DNA of 11,849 bases from Promethearchaeota archaeon (GCA_019057865.1 JAHLWP010000066.1:1-11849); one strand, 5' to 3'; counted from the first letter of the stretch, positions 233 to 11,849 are shown. Notes: a model not told the origin generated them from the letters alone. A program made the numbers and translations.

Positions 233-895
233 ATGTCATATATTTATATGAAATCTTTAGAAAAAAAGGCAGAGAAATACGATAAAGGTATAAAAATTTT
301 AACATTAGGCAGGTTACCAAAAATAAAACAATACATTGTTGATAATTATTTAAAAAAAGATCAAATTTTATTGGATGTTGGAATGGGAACCGGAACATTT
401 GCTATATTATGTGCAAAGAAAGGTTTAAATGTTGTAGGAATTGACTTTTCAGAAAAGATGTTAGATATAGCAAGAAAGAACATTGAAAAAGAAGATTTAA
501 CTGAAACTATTGAAATTGTTAAAATGCCGGTTATTGAATTGGATGAAAAATTTGCTGATAATTCATTTGATAAGGTAACAGCAATTTTAGTATTCAGCGA
601 GCTTTATTTTAAAGAACAAGAGTTTTGCTTAAACCAAATTTTTCGTATCTTAAAAGAAAATGGAGAATTTATATTGATTGATGAGGTTAAACCTAAAATA
701 TTTTGGAGAAAAGTTTTATATTTTATAATTAGAATACCACTAGCTTTAATAACATTCATAAAAGCACATGTATCGACTAAATCATTAGAAGATATCGAAA
801 AAAGGTTGCAAAATCATAGTTTTATAATTATAGAAGAAAAATTATATTTACTAGACTCTTTAAAAATTATACGTTCAAAAAAAATTATTACATAA
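233..895 (+). CDS. Class I SAM-dependent methyltransferase (UbiE-like fold), probably the corrinoid-protein-associated methyltransferase (CpaM-like)
   Basis: SAM motif I LLDVGMGTG, motif II VVGIDFSEKML, post-II FADNSFDKV and RILKENGEFILIDE. The N-terminus YIYMKSLE..AEKYDKGIKILTLG resembles, from my recall, methyltransferases found next to HgcAB-like fusions. It lies 15 bp upstream of such a fusion. Confidence 0.88.
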   Translation: MSYIYMKSLEKKAEKYDKGIKILTLGRLPKIKQYIVDNYLKKDQILLDVGMGTGTFAILCAKKGLNVVGIDFSEKMLDIARKNIEKEDLTETIEIVKMPVIELDEKFADNSFDKVTAILVFSELYFKEQEFCLNQIFRILKENGEFILIDEVKPKIFWRKVLYFIIRIPLALITFIKAHVSTKSLEDIEKRLQNHSFIIIEEKLYLLDSLKIIRSKKIIT

Positions 896-910
896 TAATT
901 TAGAGTAAGT

Positions 911-2005
911 ATGAGCTTAAAATCTAAATTGAAATTATTTGGAGCTTATTTTTTCAGGTGGTTCGGCTTTTCAATTGAACCAGATCTTAGAATAATTGGA
1001 AATCCTAATCGTGATAGCCCAGTATTACTAACTTGTAATTTTAATCTAACTGTAAATAGAGTATTAAAGGAGATAAAGGATTTAGATTGTTACTTATTAA
1101 TTGCTCCTTCAAATGGAATAAATGTGTGGTGTGGAGCATGCGGTGAGGATTTTAAAACAGATGCAGTAATATCTATTATTAAAACAAGTGGCATTAACGC
1201 GCTTGTATCCCACAGAACTTTAATATTACCTCAATTAGGCGCTCCAGGATTAGAACCTATTGAAATTAAGAAGAAAACAGGATGGAGTGCTAAATTTGGT
1301 CCTGTATACGCTAAAGATATTCCTGCATATGTGCATAATAATTTTGAGAAAATTGATATGAATCAATGTGAAGTAAGATTTCCAATTTCTAAGAGGCTAG
1401 AAATGGCAAATTTATATTTGTTTAGTCTATTTATTTTATTTTCCACTTTTTATTGGATTGCTTCTATCTTTTTACCATTTCTGGATTTGTTTCTCTATTT
1501 AGATAGTATTTTAATTCTTATTATAGTCATTAATGGTTCATTATTGATTCTTCCAAGTTTTAAAACAAAGACAGGGAAAGTAAAAGTATGGATTTACGAA
1601 GTAGTCATTTTAATATTAATCTTACTTTTTAGTCTTTTTCTAATCTATAACATTTTCTTTTTAATTTGGAATATTACTTTATCAATTCTTATCACCTTAG
1701 TTATGTCAGAAGATTTTCATGGGCTTACTCCAACATATAAAAGTGAATTAGGAGAAAAAAGTTGGAAAAAAGGAAAAGATAAAATGAAATTTCTTTTCAG
1801 TGAATATAAATTACAACCTTATGGAATAATTAATATAGAGAGAGAAAAATGCATCGGTTGTAAGATATGTATTGAAGTATGTCCAAGAAATGTATACTTT
1901 TTTAATACGAGAGAAAATAAAGTAGATATTAAATATTCCGAGAAATGTATTAATTGTAATGCATGTGTAAAGCAATGTTTAGCTCATTGTTTGACGATTA
2001 TCTAA
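911..2005 (+). CDS. Fused HgcAB-like protein: CdhD/HgcA-type corrinoid-binding domain, about 4 transmembrane helices and a C-terminal 2x[4Fe-4S] ferredoxin
   Basis: HgcA-type motifs GNPNRDSPVLLTCNFNLT, GINVWCGACG (cap helix, Cys74), HRTLILPQLGAPG and FGPVYAKDIPAY. Hydrophobic segments at about aa 168-265 are followed by DFHGLTP (compare HgcA NFTGxTP). Ferredoxin motifs are C314IGCKICIEVCP and C346INCNACVKQC. Confidence 0.9.
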   Translation: MSLKSKLKLFGAYFFRWFGFSIEPDLRIIGNPNRDSPVLLTCNFNLTVNRVLKEIKDLDCYLLIAPSNGINVWCGACGEDFKTDAVISIIKTSGINALVSHRTLILPQLGAPGLEPIEIKKKTGWSAKFGPVYAKDIPAYVHNNFEKIDMNQCEVRFPISKRLEMANLYLFSLFILFSTFYWIASIFLPFLDLFLYLDSILILIIVINGSLLILPSFKTKTGKVKVWIYEVVILILILLFSLFLIYNIFFLIWNITLSILITLVMSEDFHGLTPTYKSELGEKSWKKGKDKMKFLFSEYKLQPYGIINIEREKCIGCKICIEVCPRNVYFFNTRENKVDIKYSEKCINCNACVKQCLAHCLTII

Positions 2006-2136
2006 AAAAACACATTCTAAAGGAATTTTAACTTTATTGATTATTAAATCCTCTTCTTTTTAAGTTTGGTGATTATATTTAAAATCATTTGAGACTTTAT
2101 GATAAATGTAAAGATAATTATACTATAGTGATATCA

Positions 2137-4047
2137 ATGTCGAATGACTTTAGTGAAGATATTTCATCAGTGTTGAAAAAATATAACAAGAAGAAAGTTT
2201 CAATAGATAAAGCAATTAAAAAATTTATATATCCAGGAGATCGAATTTTTATTGATTCTGGTTGTGCAGAACCAATTGATTTAACTGCGAAGTTAATAGA
2301 ACTTGGTCCTAAGCTTCCAGATGTAGAAATTCTGCATTTTCTTAGCCTTAGTGATCTTGATTACTATGAAACTGCTGGGGGTATAGAAGACTTATTTAGA
2401 CATAATGCATTCTTTATAGGAAAATCACTGCGTAAATATGTTAAAGCTGGTCAAGCAGATTATACACCAATGCTTCTATCAGAAATCCCTTGGTTATTCA
2501 AACTCGGTCGTATGCATTTAGAAACAGCTCTTATTCAGGTTAGCCTCCCTGACAGATACGGATTCTGTAGTTATGGAATAAATGTTGATATTGTAAAACC
2601 TATTTGTGAGGCTGCTGAATATGTTGTTGCAGAAATTAATCCGAATATGCCACGTACATTAGGAGATTCTTTTATTCATATGGACGATATAGATGCATTT
2701 GTACTCACAGACCATAATATAATAGAATTCAATTATGATCCTCCAGGAGAAGTCGAAACTAAAATAGCAAAATTTGTAGCATCTCTAATTGAAGATGAAT
2801 CAACAATTCAAATGGGAATTGGGGCTATCCCTAATGCAGTTACTTCAGAATTGGAAGTTAAAAAGGATTTAGGCGTACATAGTGAGGTATTTTCTGATGG
2901 GATTGTAGATCTTGTAGAGAAGGGTGTAGTTACTTGTAAAAAGAAAACAATTCATAAAGATAAAATCATTTGTTCTTTTGTTATGGGTTCTCGAAGACTA
3001 TATGATTTTGTTGATGATAACCCTATGGTTGAATTTCATCCTTGCGATTATTGTAATGATCCATATATTATCAGTCAAAATAAAAAACAGGTTGCTATAA
3101 ATGCTGCATTGACTGTAGACTTAACGGGTCAAGTAAATGCAGATTCTCTTGGTCATCAATTTTATAGTGGAATTGGTGGTCAAGTAGACTTTGTAAGAGG
3201 TGCGGGACGGGCTATGGATGGAAAACCAATAATGGTGGTACCTTCAACAGCAACCTTAAAAGATGGCACTATTGTTTCTCGGATTGTTCCTTTTCTACAA
3301 CCAGGCTCCGGAGTAGTTATTACTCGTGGTGATGTTCATTATATTATATCTGAATGGGGTATTGCTTATCTTTATGGTAAAAGCATTAGAGAAAGAGTTC
3401 TTGAGATGATTAACATAGCACATCCTGATTTTCGAGAGGAATTATTAGAACATGCTAAAAAATGGAAATATGTATATTCAGACCAAAATTTACCCATATC
3501 CATAGATGGAAGAATTGCTGTATATCCTGAAAAATATGAAACGATATTCAAATTAAAGAATGGAAAAACAATAAAAATTCGCCCTGTTAAACCGACTGAT
3601 GAGAGAATTATCCAAGAACTCCATTATTCGCTTGATGAGAAGGATAGATATTTAAGATTTTTTACTCCTGTTCATGATTTTCGTCATAAGAAAATGCAAC
3701 CGTTTGTAACAATCGATTACACTACAGATATGATTTTAGTGGGTGAATATAGTGAAGGGGGAGAAGAAAAAATTGTTGCTTTAGGAGCATTTTTCAAAAC
3801 AGTTCAACCCTCAGTAGCAGAATTAGCTTTTGTTGTTAATAAGAACTGGAGAGGATTGGGAATAACTAGATTTTTACTAAATTATTTAGCAAAAATTGGT
3901 CGTGAGCTTAATTATAAAAATTTTGGAGGGTCAATTTTACTTGAAAATAAACCTATGCTTCATATAATTGATACATCGGGATATAAACTAACATTCAAAA
4001 ACATTGAGAGTGGAGTTGCTGAATTTGCATTAAATATTTCAAAATGA
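2137..4047 (+). CDS. Acetyl-CoA hydrolase/4-hydroxybutyrate CoA-transferase family protein fused to a C-terminal GNAT acetyltransferase domain
   Basis: AEINPNMPRTLGDSFIH, IQMGIGAIP, DLGVHSE (catalytic Glu), VDLTGQVNAD, SGIGGQVDFVRGA and IAHPDFRE. The GNAT part has IRPVKPTD, YLRFF and AELAFVVNKNWRGLGI. The in-frame ATG at 2137 is preferred over the TTG at 2089. Confidence 0.9.
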   Translation: MSNDFSEDISSVLKKYNKKKVSIDKAIKKFIYPGDRIFIDSGCAEPIDLTAKLIELGPKLPDVEILHFLSLSDLDYYETAGGIEDLFRHNAFFIGKSLRKYVKAGQADYTPMLLSEIPWLFKLGRMHLETALIQVSLPDRYGFCSYGINVDIVKPICEAAEYVVAEINPNMPRTLGDSFIHMDDIDAFVLTDHNIIEFNYDPPGEVETKIAKFVASLIEDESTIQMGIGAIPNAVTSELEVKKDLGVHSEVFSDGIVDLVEKGVVTCKKKTIHKDKIICSFVMGSRRLYDFVDDNPMVEFHPCDYCNDPYIISQNKKQVAINAALTVDLTGQVNADSLGHQFYSGIGGQVDFVRGAGRAMDGKPIMVVPSTATLKDGTIVSRIVPFLQPGSGVVITRGDVHYIISEWGIAYLYGKSIRERVLEMINIAHPDFREELLEHAKKWKYVYSDQNLPISIDGRIAVYPEKYETIFKLKNGKTIKIRPVKPTDERIIQELHYSLDEKDRYLRFFTPVHDFRHKKMQPFVTIDYTTDMILVGEYSEGGEEKIVALGAFFKTVQPSVAELAFVVNKNWRGLGITRFLLNYLAKIGRELNYKNFGGSILLENKPMLHIIDTSGYKLTFKNIESGVAEFALNISK

Positions 4048-4093: not shown

Positions 4094-5386
4094 TTACTCC
4101 CTTATCTCTCTATTCCTTAAATATCCAGCAATTTTAAGTGCTATTTTTTCTTGCCGCTTCCAATCACCAAAAGCATATCCTCTTGAAATTAGATTTTTAA
4201 TCTCTTTTTTATATACTTCACTAAGATGTTTAGCTGATTTTTTCTCAAATGGTGTTTGAGGTAAGGGAATAAAAGAATGTGCATGAATTCTTGCACCTAA
4301 TTTTGACAAATCCTTCATCATCTTAATTGTAAGTTCAATATCTTCATCGGATTCTCCGGGTAATCCAAAAATGAAGTCTACATTAATTTTTAGATTTGAT
4401 TTTATAGTTAAATTTACAGCGTTATATACATCATCGATTGTATGATCTCTATGGCATAAATCCAATATTTTTTGACTTCCTGATTGTGCTCCAATTGTTA
4501 TATTATCATTGTTGGCATATTTTAAGACTAATTCTAAAGTTTCATTTATTACATGTTCAGGTCTTACTTCTGAAGGGAAGGACCCGAAAAAGATTCTTCC
4601 ATTAGGAGCAATAATCTCCTTGATTTTAACCAGTAGTTCTTCTAATAATGGAATATTTAGCGTTTTTCCATTTAAAGAGGCATAAGAAAAAACATTAGGC
4701 GAAATAAATCTTATATCAGTAAGATCTCCATAATGATTTTTTAATTCTTGTACATATTTACAAATAAGCTCAATACTTCTGTGTCTTGGATAAACACCAG
4801 ATATATATGGTGTTTGACAAAAATAACAGACATAGGGGCACCCTCTCGTTATTTCTATGGCCCCTGACTTTGCATTTTTTATAGGGAATGGAGGATAATC
4901 ATCTAAATTAATAGGTTTTCGCTTACCAGTAAAAAAATACTCATTCGATTCATTTAAATAAGCAATCCCTTTAATATGTGTAAAATCTTTTCCCATATCT
5001 ATTTTTTTCAAGAGTTCTATTATAGTTTCTTCACCTTCACCTACGACAACTATATCAAATCCTAATTTAAGTGTTCCTAAAGGATCACCTGTTGGATGAG
5101 GTCCTCCCGCTAAAAGAATAACCTTTCTTGAGTATTTTTTCTTTAAAGTTGTAATTAGATCATAAATTTCCCATAATTGTGTAGTAAAAAAGGATATACC
5201 AATAACTACAAGTTTGTGTTTATTAATTATATCTTTCAAACTATGAATGAGCCCATCTCTTTTTGGGATAAAGTATATCGCAAATTGGTCAAAATATTGA
5301 TCTGTTTCTAGAGCTCCGATTAAGGCGTTAAAACTGTATATATTATTTTTATAATAATAAATAACAAAAGCAGTATTTTGAGACAA
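4094..5386 (-). CDS. B12-binding domain/radical SAM protein (MJ1487-like family)
   Basis: N-terminal B12-binding-like domain (ISFFTTQ, LAGGPHPTGDP, VVVGEGEET). Radical SAM motif EITRGCPYVCYFC (CxxxCxxC), then FFGSFPSEVRPE, IGAQSGS and VDFIFGLPGE. TTG start. Confidence 0.88.
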   Translation of the reverse strand: MSQNTAFVIYYYKNNIYSFNALIGALETDQYFDQFAIYFIPKRDGLIHSLKDIINKHKLVVIGISFFTTQLWEIYDLITTLKKKYSRKVILLAGGPHPTGDPLGTLKLGFDIVVVGEGEETIIELLKKIDMGKDFTHIKGIAYLNESNEYFFTGKRKPINLDDYPPFPIKNAKSGAIEITRGCPYVCYFCQTPYISGVYPRHRSIELICKYVQELKNHYGDLTDIRFISPNVFSYASLNGKTLNIPLLEELLVKIKEIIAPNGRIFFGSFPSEVRPEHVINETLELVLKYANNDNITIGAQSGSQKILDLCHRDHTIDDVYNAVNLTIKSNLKINVDFIFGLPGESDEDIELTIKMMKDLSKLGARIHAHSFIPLPQTPFEKKSAKHLSEVYKKEIKNLISRGYAFGDWKRQEKIALKIAGYLRNREIRE

Positions 5387-6262: not shown

Positions 6263-7441
6263 TTAAGATGATAGTGGAAAGGTTCCATATACTCTCCATA
6301 TTGCTATATCTTCAAATCCTAAAATCTCTGTTTGAGTTAATTGCCCATTACATGTGTCCTTTACTTTGTGCCATAGTATTTTTGAGATCTCATCAATTGA
6401 TTTATCCTCAGTTATAATTTTTGAAGCATCTACATCAATATTACATTTCATCCAATCACAAGTTTTTGGATTTCCACAGATTTTAATAACTGGGGTCACA
6501 GGATTGCCAGTAGGAGTGCCCTGTCCTGTTGTCATTATAATTAATTGAGAACCTGCCGCAGCAAGACCTGTCATCGATTCTACATCAATTCCGGGTTCAT
6601 TCATCAACCATAATCCTTTTCCTTTAGGTACTTCTGAGTAGTTGATAACACCTTGAATAGGGGCTTTTCCTGCTTTAGCTATCGTTCCTAAGGATTTTTC
6701 TTCGATTGTTGTTAAACCTCCTTTTATATTACCGGGAGTCGGTTGGATACCTCTGAAATCAATTCCTAATCTCATTGTTCTTTCTAAAAATGCATCTAAG
6801 AGTCGTTTAATTTTTTCAGCAGTTTTTTCGTCTCTTGCTCGCTTTATTAATAGATGTTCAGTTCCTATCCATTCAGTAAATTCTGGAAGAATAAATGTAC
6901 CCCCTAATTCAATTATTTTATCAGAGATGATACCTACTGCTGGATTAGCAGTAATTCCAGATATTGAATCCGATCCTCCACATTCTAAACCTAAAACCAA
7001 ATGTGAGAAATCAAATGGTTCTCGCTTTAATTCTTTCGCTTCTCCAGTCATTTTTTTAGCTAATTTTATACCTTTTTCAATTGCAGCAATTGAACCACCT
7101 TTAACATCTTGAACATTAAAAAATTCTACTGGTTTTTTAGATCTTTTTATTTGATTTGCTAATTGTCTGCTAGTAAGATTTTCACAACCTAATCCAATGA
7201 CTAAGGCTCCATAAACATTGGGATTTTTGGCTAGCCCTGCCAAAGTGCGGAGTGTGTATGTGAAATCGCGCCCGAACTGAGCACAACCAAGGGGATGGCA
7301 AATTTCAACAGAATTTTCTACTTTTTTCGCTATTTGCTTGGCGATATTATTTACACATACGACACTCGGCAAAATTACAATTTTATTTCGAATACCTACT
7401 TGCTTATTTAGACGTTGAAATCCTAAAAATTCTTCACCCAT
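6263..7441 (-). CDS. UxaA/GarD-family dehydratase, catalytic (large) subunit
   Basis: VGIRN, HPLGC, LVIGLGCE, GLECGGSDSISGITANPAVG, PTPGNIKGGLTTIEEKSLG, and MTTGQGTPTGNPVTPVIK. Confidence 0.9.
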   Translation of the reverse strand: MGEEFLGFQRLNKQVGIRNKIVILPSVVCVNNIAKQIAKKVENSVEICHPLGCAQFGRDFTYTLRTLAGLAKNPNVYGALVIGLGCENLTSRQLANQIKRSKKPVEFFNVQDVKGGSIAAIEKGIKLAKKMTGEAKELKREPFDFSHLVLGLECGGSDSISGITANPAVGIISDKIIELGGTFILPEFTEWIGTEHLLIKRARDEKTAEKIKRLLDAFLERTMRLGIDFRGIQPTPGNIKGGLTTIEEKSLGTIAKAGKAPIQGVINYSEVPKGKGLWLMNEPGIDVESMTGLAAAGSQLIIMTTGQGTPTGNPVTPVIKICGNPKTCDWMKCNIDVDASKIITEDKSIDEISKILWHKVKDTCNGQLTQTEILGFEDIAIWRVYGTFPLSS

Positions 7442-7722
7442 TTCTTTTTACCCTCCTCAAGATAAGCGCTTTTAACATTATGAATATGAATCCAATCCCC
7501 TTTCATAATATCTTCTGTAGCAATCCCAATAATTTCACCATATTTGAAGATTAATTCTCCTTTTTTGATGTCGCTTAAAGCAACTTTATGACCATAAGGT
7601 ATAACTTGATTTATTTTAATCGTTTGATTCTTGTTAATTTCAATTATCTCATTTCGGGGAATTTCTTCTAAAAGCGTGGTGCAATTATCTTTAGGATTCA
7701 TTCTTATGAATTTTTTTCTCAT
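7423..7722 (-). CDS. UxaA-family dehydratase small subunit (SAF domain)
   Basis: PKDNC, IPYGHKVAL, FKYGEIIGIATEDI and GDWIHIHNV. It overlaps the downstream large-subunit gene by 19 nt. Confidence 0.9.
   Translation of the reverse strand: MRKKFIRMNPKDNCTTLLEEIPRNEIIEINKNQTIKINQVIPYGHKVALSDIKKGELIFKYGEIIGIATEDIMKGDWIHIHNVKSAYLEEGKKKWVKNF
7452..7458 (-). promoter_or_regulatory. Shine-Dalgarno-like site for the UxaA large subunit
   Basis: The minus strand reads GAGGAGG-GTAAAAAGAA-ATG at the 7441 start, embedded in the 3' end of the SAF gene. Confidence 0.55.
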
Positions 7723-10965: not shown

Positions 10966-11849
10966 TTAAAAATCAACATCTTTCCCTTCGAAAGCATAAT
11001 CAAAAAGCTTTCTAAAATATTCATCTGTCATTGATCTAGGGGACATTACAACTGTTGCATCTTCAAAACAACACGATACCAATGAGTCTAAGTTCTTCTC
11101 TAAATCTTCCCTTGAGATTCCTAAATCTTTCAGTTTCGTGGGGAAATCGACCTTTTTCTGAAGTTCTTTAATTTTCTCAATAACTAAAAAAGCAGCCTTC
11201 TTTTCCTCTTCGTCCCAATTAGCCCAACCTAATTGCTTTGCCACTTTTGCATAAATTTCTATAGTTTTATCCTCCTCATCAGAATTATTTAACAAAAATT
11301 GAGTTACATAGGGGAGCACTATACCAACTGCTCTCCCATGAGCTGTGTTAAAGACAGCACCCCAACTATGGCCCATTCCATGACCTATATGTAACTGTGA
11401 ATTACTAAAAGCTAAACCCGCCATTGTTGCAGCTTGATGTAGGTAATCTCGAGCCTTTTGATTTTCACCATCTTTATAGACAATTGGTAAATATTTAAAT
11501 ACTAACTCTATTGATTTTAATCCAATTGCATAAGAAAATTCATTTCTCCAATTTGAAACCATTGCTTCAATAGCATGGGAAAGTGCATCGAAACCAGTAT
11601 CAACCGTTAATTTCGAAGGCATACCGAGTGGAAATATTGATCTACAATTGCATATGTAGGTGCCAACCCCTTGTGAGTATATATAAACTTTTTCCATATA
11701 TCGTTTTCTAATCTTGAGATAATAGCAGCATTAGTAGTTTCAGAACCTGTTCCAGATGTAGTAGGTATTGCTATAAATTTTGATCTTTTACCTATATCGT
11801 ATAATTTATTATTAAAGGAGTGAACATCATCTATCGTAAACTCAGGAAA
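10966..11849 (-). pseudogene. Iron-containing (type III) alcohol dehydrogenase, 5'-truncated by the window edge and with an apparent 1-nt frameshift near 11639 (pseudogene or sequence error)
   Basis: The frame from 11849 reads ...FIAIPTTSGTGSETTNAAII...LAPTYAIVD and stops at 11609-11607. The adjacent frame continues IFPLGMPSKLTVDTGFDALSHAIE...AGLAFSN...GHGMGH...HG, with the Fe ligands intact. Confidence 0.8.

Follow-up and report, generated by a model that had tools for sequence, protein, structure and literature searches.

A second cysteine in the cap helix of an archaeal HgcAB-like fusion protein as a lineage trait of a catalogued family

Introduction

What does a second cysteine do in a cap helix whose first cysteine is the predicted ligand of cobalt, and does it make a new enzyme of the protein that carries it? 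The question is raised by a gene at positions 911–2005 of a stretch of DNA of 11,849 nucleotides (hereafter the window) from Promethearchaeota archaeon (GCA_019057865.1, JAHLWP010000066.1:1-11849). Its product resembles HgcA and HgcB joined in one chain, and its cap helix reads WCGACG. In the true HgcAB system, SAM methylates Co(I), and a conserved cysteine thiolate is the lower axial ligand of the resulting methyl-Co(III), with a Co–S distance of about 2.5 Å by EXAFS (PMC11588087). This ligand is expected to be off cobalt upon reduction to Co(I) (PMC7305189). A clade of fused HgcAB proteins, Asgard members included, has already been described (PMC4646819, PMC10083202), and the fused-type protein of Pyrococcus furiosus, the sole one tested, produced no methylmercury (PMC4646819).

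Results

The gene at 911–2005 belongs to the HgcAB-like fusion family

The gene and the domains outside its cap helix are as follows.

911–2005, plus strand: HgcAB-like fusion protein of 364 aa, with a corrinoid-binding domain, membrane helices and a 2x[4Fe-4S] ferredoxin domain
1385–1711, plus strand: membrane domain, with long helices at residues 159–187, 193–216, 222–245 and 248–267 (DSSP on the AlphaFold2 model; hydrophobic sequence)
1850–1978, plus strand: fused ferredoxin with two CxxCxxCxxxC motifs (C314–C324 and C346–C356), matching Fer4 families

We found that the NCBIfam model NF043039, "HgcAB-like fusion protein", matched this open reading frame with 362.2 bits (cut-off 285) over model positions 5-349/350. 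The cut-offs of the models for true HgcA (NF040863; 158.7 bits, cut-off 275) and true HgcB (NF040864; 45.6 bits, cut-off 99) were not reached, and the model for the CFeSP large subunit (NF003195) gave 82.7 bits against a cut-off of 306, with a match confined to the C-terminal corrinoid domain. In the Pfam search, PF03599 (CdhD/CFeSP corrinoid domain) covered residues 22–140 and the Fer4 4Fe-4S dicluster families covered residues 305–360. The closest database proteins were 57–73% identical to the product, with one more at 97%, and the named nearest entries were "HgcAB-like fusion protein" in Promethearchaeota, Odin-, Thor- and Heimdallarchaeota, which identifies the host as an Asgard archaeon. 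Near-identical DNA was present in marine-sediment and subsurface metagenomes from 11 studies. One metatranscriptome contained two contigs of 151 nt across 916–1242 at a depth of 3, a signal too slight for transcription to be claimed.

All eight cysteines of the two ferredoxin motifs were invariant (118/118 close homologs). Past the last cluster cysteine there is a tail of 8 residues with a single cysteine, Cys360, and no Cys-Cys tail of the HgcB type. Judged by its sequence, the gene encodes an ordinary HgcAB-like fusion protein and shows no difference from the other members at the family level.

The cap helix and the other clade-typical cysteines

The residues at issue were located in the gene by translation.

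1115–1150, plus strand: cap-helix segment G69-INVWCGACGED-80 (helix 72–77 by DSSP on the model)
1130–1132, plus strand: Cys74, codon tgt, the predicted lower axial cobalt ligand, equivalent to HgcA Cys93
1139–1141, plus strand: Cys77 (position +3), codon tgc, equivalent to HgcA Gly96 and CFeSP Ala377
1034–1036, plus strand: Cys42 in T41-C-N-F44, codon tgt, at the end of strand 1 beside Thr41
1088–1090, plus strand: Cys60, at the start of strand 2 (residues 60–65 in the model)
1988–1990, plus strand: Cys360, four residues past the last cluster ligand; Ala in other family members

The original prediction had described a cap helix in which Cys74 is kept and the canonical AAGK is replaced by GACG, so that Cys77 is added, and this description was correct to the base (1115–1150, with the Cys74 codon at 1130–1132). 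The same was true of its second observation, that Cys42 stands in T-C-N-F where canonical HgcA has alanine: the canonical HgcA sequences recovered in the same searches read NVWCAAGK and carried Ala at that position. Two more clade-typical cysteines, Cys60 and Cys360, were absent from the prediction. Thr41, next to Cys42, corresponds to HgcA Thr60 when a constant 19 is added to reach the ND132 numbering; in the published HgcAB model (PMC7305189) this threonine binds the nucleotide loop.

Conservation was examined in a set of 120 close homologs with 41–97% identity which, together with the query, made 121 sequences. Cys74 was present in every one of them (121/121), Cys60 in all but one (120/121) and Cys360 in 117/118, while position 75 was Gly in 102/121. 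The prediction had singled out Cys77 and Cys42 for such an alignment, with variation among close homologs to count against it. Cys77, kept in 117 of the 121 sequences, withstood this check; Cys42 withstood it only in part, with Cys in 98 but Ala in 13 and Ser in 7. Across 115 aligned family members G69, N71, W73 and C74 were invariant, and G78 was nearly so.

In the species-representative genomes Cys77 was encoded by TGT four times and by TGC eight times. Contigs that came from an RNA library and from three further metagenome studies had several substitutions elsewhere in the gene, but codons 74–78 were free of variants. The retention in 117/121 close homologs, the use of both cysteine codons and the lack of variants in codons 74–78 lead us to conclude that Cys77 is kept by purifying selection in this lineage.

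Some of the substitutions in the contigs of other studies were toward the family consensus: A85S (1163) in RNA library X20 only, A97E (1200) in DNA run X6 and in X20, and V99I (1205) in X20 only. Compared with these contigs, the strain of the window has a few atypical residues right after the cap helix.

Distribution of the second cysteine in the wider family

The wider family was covered by an exhaustive HMMER scan, and clustering at 50% identity left 150 representatives, which with the query gave 151 rows. Cys74 was found in 147 rows, and two of the remaining four have a gap there. Position 77, by comparison, was the most changeable site of the cap helix: Gly in 62 rows, Ala in 23, Cys in 18, Thr in 13, Ser in 10, Leu in 7 and Arg in 6, and also Glu, Val and Asp. 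A small residue (G, A, C, T or S) was present in 126 of the 151, and the spread as a whole indicates that the site tolerates large and charged side chains. Position 42 was Gly in 57 rows, Cys in 35 and Ala in 34; Cys60 occurred in 65/151 rows and Cys360 in 12 representatives. At position 78, Lys is restricted to canonical HgcA; the fused family has Gly there.

Two trees were used to follow these residues. The first was computed for 123 proteins after the columns of the cap helix had been taken out, and Cys at +3 requires five changes on it. Of the 73 rows in one well-supported (starred) clade, 69 have Cys at +3 and four do not; these four read AAGG, GASV, AALG and GASG, and all of them retain Cys74, Cys60 and Cys360. 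Cys77 was thus lost at least four times while those three cysteines stayed. Site 77 changed 4 times within the clade (tree length 15.85), against 22 times among the 42 other fused rows, and changed less within the clade than variable sites flanking the cap helix, such as 68, 79 and 82.

On the second tree (80 loci from species-representative genomes), all 12 species representatives that bear Cys77 fell in one starred clade of 21 rows, interleaved with members that have A, R, V or K. One sister pair joins a Calditrichaceae protein with ASCG to a Desulfobacteraceae protein with AARG. Cys77 was fixed only in a sub-clade of Asgard archaea and Hadarchaeota, and it was intermittent in the nearest bacterial lineages, where A, R, V and K also occur. 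Among the species representatives Cys360 was confined to the same archaeal sub-clade, in which Cys77 comes together with Cys360 and usually with Cys42; the bacterial CxxC members are without Cys360. This sub-clade also misses the usual Pro after the last cluster ligand (C-L-A-H-C). Further copies in Heimdallarchaeota, from quite different branches of the family, are without the second cysteine.

Independent contrasts showed no coupling of Cys77 with Cys42, Cys60 or Cys360, on 5 contrasts only, which makes the comparison underpowered. In a covariation analysis of 260 fused sequences (MI with APC; Neff 196), indels at 287–302 accounted for the top pairs, and the partners of position 77 were 305, 363 and 348 in the ferredoxin domain, a weak and phylogeny-confounded signal (z 3.6–4.5).

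The original prediction had taken the extra thiols to define a distinct subfamily. This was not borne out: the protein belongs to a catalogued family (NF043039; the fused HgcAB of Podar 2015) within which Cys at +3 has repeatedly been lost or exchanged for A, R, V, K, S, L or G. From the sequences compared here, Cys at +3 is a lineage trait of that family, neither a requirement of the family nor the sign of an enzymologically new subfamily.

Structure and placement of Cys77

The AlphaFold2 model, built on 115 family members, had a mean pLDDT of 95.7 and a pTM of 0.90. It consists of a Rossmann-like domain with the short helix 72–77, four long membrane helices (within 159–267) and the ferredoxin domain. 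The best Foldseek matches were the published integrative model of HgcAB (9a0b) and crystal structures of CFeSP, with an rmsd of 1.4–1.7 Å over 124 columns. In the HMMER alignment with CFeSP 2h9a, Cys74 aligned with Thr374, which we take to be the residue beneath cobalt, and Cys77 aligned with Ala377. Placed by the CFeSP alignment and fold match and by the published HgcAB model, Cys77 would lie a turn of the helix below Cys74, beneath the corrin, on the side opposite to the methyl group and its acceptor. Such a lower-face position makes binding of the methyl acceptor by Cys77 unlikely. That the family accepts R, K, E, L and V at site 77 suggests, in turn, that the site is lateral and partly exposed, and speaks against a packed or catalytic position. 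In the HgcAB model the backbone of Gly96, at the position of Cys77, contacts HgcB Arg58 at the domain interface (PMC7305189).

The CpaM partner and the gene neighbourhood

The gene that lies immediately upstream is the following.

233–895, plus strand: CpaM, a corrinoid protein-associated class I SAM methyltransferase of 220 aa, ending 15 nt before the HgcAB-like gene

The model NF043040 matched this open reading frame with 242.6 bits (cut-off 180), and Pfam Methyltransf_11, Methyltransf_25 and Methyltransf_31 matched it as well. Of the 73 HgcAB-like loci, 69 had a CpaM homolog upstream on the same strand or fused in frame, irrespective of the +3 residue, compared with none of 7 canonical HgcA (AAGK) loci. 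The HgcAB-like fusion gene (911–2005) and CpaM (233–895) are thus assigned, by homology and gene order, to a two-gene module. Archaea as well as bacteria also have single-chain triple fusions of about 580–630 aa (CpaM, corrinoid, membrane and ferredoxin parts), some with Cys at +3 and some lacking it (P0106, P0109, P0120, P0121, P0138 and P0139; loci L022, L024 and L033-L035). These triple fusions strongly indicate that CpaM works jointly with the corrinoid protein.

Among the neighbours of the homolog loci, no gene of the window besides CpaM was conserved next to the HgcAB-like gene, and no thioredoxin-like or disulfide-reductase gene was conserved beside the CxxC loci. CpaM shows no conserved cysteine set of the ArsM type; its sole frequent cysteine is that of the ordinary GCGTG SAM-binding motif.

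The window contains several other genes. A B12-binding radical SAM protein of the TIGR04013 (MJ_1487) type is encoded on the minus strand at 4094–5386 (440 bits), 2 kb from the module; we considered it as a partner and rejected it, as it is not conserved beside the homologs. The plus-strand open reading frame at 2089–4047 encodes a 652-aa acetyl-CoA hydrolase/transferase (CoA-transferase) fused to a C-terminal GNAT acetyltransferase domain; its listed TTG start is doubtful, and the ATG at 2137 is likelier. On the minus strand, 6263–7722 holds an altronate/galactarate dehydratase in two overlapping open reading frames (SAF-domain small piece, 7423–7722; large piece, 6263–7441), in a split UxaA-like arrangement. 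Finally, an iron-containing alcohol dehydrogenase at 10966–11849 (minus strand) is apparently split across two frames, with the end of its N-terminal domain at 11607–11849 and its C-terminal domain in an open reading frame at 10966–11697 that overlaps by about 90 nt; this split could reflect a frameshift, a pseudogene or an assembly error.

A second HgcA-like module is present in the same genome outside the window (contig C57, locus L002:6-2818). It comprises, in this order, an ACR3 arsenite efflux gene, a 552-aa CpaM::HgcA fusion and a separate 121-aa HgcB-like ferredoxin. The CpaM::HgcA fusion has the cap helix GINVWCAARG and no fused ferredoxin, and the HgcB-like 2x[4Fe-4S] ferredoxin has a Cys-rich C-terminal tail. 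The adjacent arsenite pump hints at a metalloid link for this paralog.

Discussion

Proposed working of the module and role of Cys77

We consider it probable, at roughly 0.7, that the protein is an ordinary family member working in a module with CpaM, and that Cys77 is a useful but dispensable second-shell residue, a lineage trait that forms no substrate site. By analogy with true HgcAB, the fused 2x[4Fe-4S] domain would reduce the corrinoid to Co(I). CpaM would then supply the methyl group of SAM or assist its loading, and the Cys74 thiolate would bind the lower face to give CH3-Co(III)-S(Cys), from which the methyl group would leave by the upper face to its acceptor; these steps, too, are modelled on the known system. 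Cys77 would act as a putative second-shell modifier of the Co–S(Cys74) site. While the Cys74 thiolate is off cobalt, the thiol of Cys77 could share a proton with it or form a hydrogen bond to it, and Cys77 may sit at the interface with the ferredoxin domain. The retention of Cys77 in 117/121 close homologs and throughout the archaeal sub-clade could also point to a function more specific than tuning.

Alternatives to a second-shell role

One alternative is that Cys77 has no specific function and is a tolerated small residue at +3 that was fixed by descent. The variability of position 77, the highest in the cap helix, with a small residue in 126 of 151 representatives, is what this would lead one to expect, and so are the losses of Cys77 without accompanying change and its alternation between close bacterial sisters. 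The 73-row clade tells otherwise: site 77 changed only 4 times there over a tree length of 15.85, less than the flanking sites 68, 79 and 82, both cysteine codons are in use, and drift rarely keeps a cysteine across 40–60% sequence divergence. Pure drift fits the clade-wide retention of Cys77 poorly, and we regard this explanation as unlikely.

A thioredoxin-like switch is a more doubtful proposal. Cys74 and Cys77 of W-C74-G-A-C77 would form a reversible disulfide within the helix, so that oxidation would pull Cys74 off cobalt and reduction would restore ligation. The local WCGAC resembles the thioredoxin motif, WCGPC, down to Gly75, which the Asgard clade shares with thioredoxin (102/121). 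Both cysteines lie in the model helix 72–77, and the C-alpha distance from i to i+3 in an ideal alpha helix, about 5 Å, is in the disulfide range, a figure that comes from geometry and not from the model. The selective retention of Cys77 in the clade would also suit a switch. The fold, however, is Rossmann-like and corrinoid-binding, not that of thioredoxin; the CxxC loci have no thioredoxin-like or disulfide-reductase gene conserved beside them; and the hosts are strict anaerobes of marine sediment. Moreover, the switch would have to be optional, since four lineages carry S, G or L at the site and bacterial sisters carry R, K or V.

A narrower form of the proposal, which we judge somewhat less likely still, is that WCGAC in Asgard archaea and Hadarchaeota is a dithiol/disulfide switch that couples cobalt ligation to the redox state either of the cell or, perhaps through Cys360, of the fused ferredoxin. 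If true, a thioredoxin-like motif would gate Cys-on methyl-cobalamin chemistry, a form of control undescribed for any corrinoid protein.

That Cys74 and Cys77, with Cys42, bind a metal(loid) acceptor or replace the missing C-terminal cysteines of HgcB, as the original prediction had offered, is highly improbable: the cap helix would be placed beneath the corrin and methyl transfer would take place on the upper face, Cys74 is required as the predicted cobalt ligand, Cys42 varies among close homologs, CpaM is without a conserved cysteine set of the ArsM kind, and the contrasts, though only 5 and underpowered, show no coupling of Cys77 with Cys42, Cys60 or Cys360. The fused ferredoxin is indeed without the HgcB Cys-Cys tail, with the protein ending four residues past Cys360, and the second module of the same genome shows the reverse arrangement (WCAARG and a Cys-tailed HgcB-like ferredoxin, by an ACR3 pump), which is a single anecdote. 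Most fused members are, however, without both the tail and Cys77, which indicates that no compensation is required. On the topology read from the CFeSP fold match and the published HgcAB model, substrate binding or replacement of the HgcB tail by the cysteine pair would be unlikely.

We thus favour a second-shell role for Cys77 in an ordinary HgcAB-like protein. The HgcAB-like/CpaM module occurs widely among anaerobes, and knowledge of its active site would inform how Cys-ligated methyl-cobalamin chemistry, the basis of mercury methylation, is tuned. The natural variants without Cys77 are ready-made controls for work on purified members.

Comparison with known systems

The protein and thioredoxin both have W-C-G-x-C at a beta strand followed by a helix, within the first helical turns, and the resemblance is only local: the fold is different, the first cysteine is here the predicted cobalt ligand, and there is no linked redox partner gene. 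The CFeSP large subunit (AcsC/CdhE; 2h9a, 2ycl, 4djd) matches residues 20–142 with its C-terminal corrinoid domain (E 5e-9). It has Thr374 and Ala377 in place of Cys74 and Cys77, and an N-terminal [4Fe-4S] domain and a TIM barrel without a membrane domain, unlike the product of 911–2005, which has one.

HgcA and HgcB (Parks 2013; modelled by Cooper 2020, PMC7305189; studied biochemically by Zheng 2024, PMC11588087) have in common with it the corrinoid domain with the cap-helix cysteine, the membrane domain, the 2x[4Fe-4S] partner and, as predicted for the fused protein, SAM as methyl source. The HgcA motif is N(V/I)WC(A/S)(A/G/S)GK (PMC10087281), as against WCGACG here; HgcB is a separate protein with vicinal C-terminal cysteines, whereas the ferredoxin is fused here and lacks the Cys pair; and the product of 911–2005 differs further in having a dedicated SAM methyltransferase partner. 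The original prediction had foreseen that strict motif screens would miss such a protein, and WCGACG is indeed excluded both by the high-stringency list of Hg-MATE and by Lin 2023, whose filter is N(V/I)WC(A/S). Its exclusion by motif-based hgcA screens is right.

In a literature search for motif strings we found no paper that prints WC(G/A)(A/S)CG, and the two-cysteine variant of the cap helix itself seems undescribed. The closest known system is the HgcAB-like fusion (NF043039; Podar 2015, PMC4646819; Lin 2023, PMC10083202), which has the same architecture of corrinoid, membrane and 2x[4Fe-4S] domains, the same invariant NVWC core ending in Gly and not in Lys, and the same upstream CpaM (NF043040). 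Within this family, the product of 911–2005 falls in a sub-clade with Cys at +3 and, in archaea, also Cys360. The two-cysteine helix marks an archaeal-centred lineage in a catalogued family and not a new enzyme.
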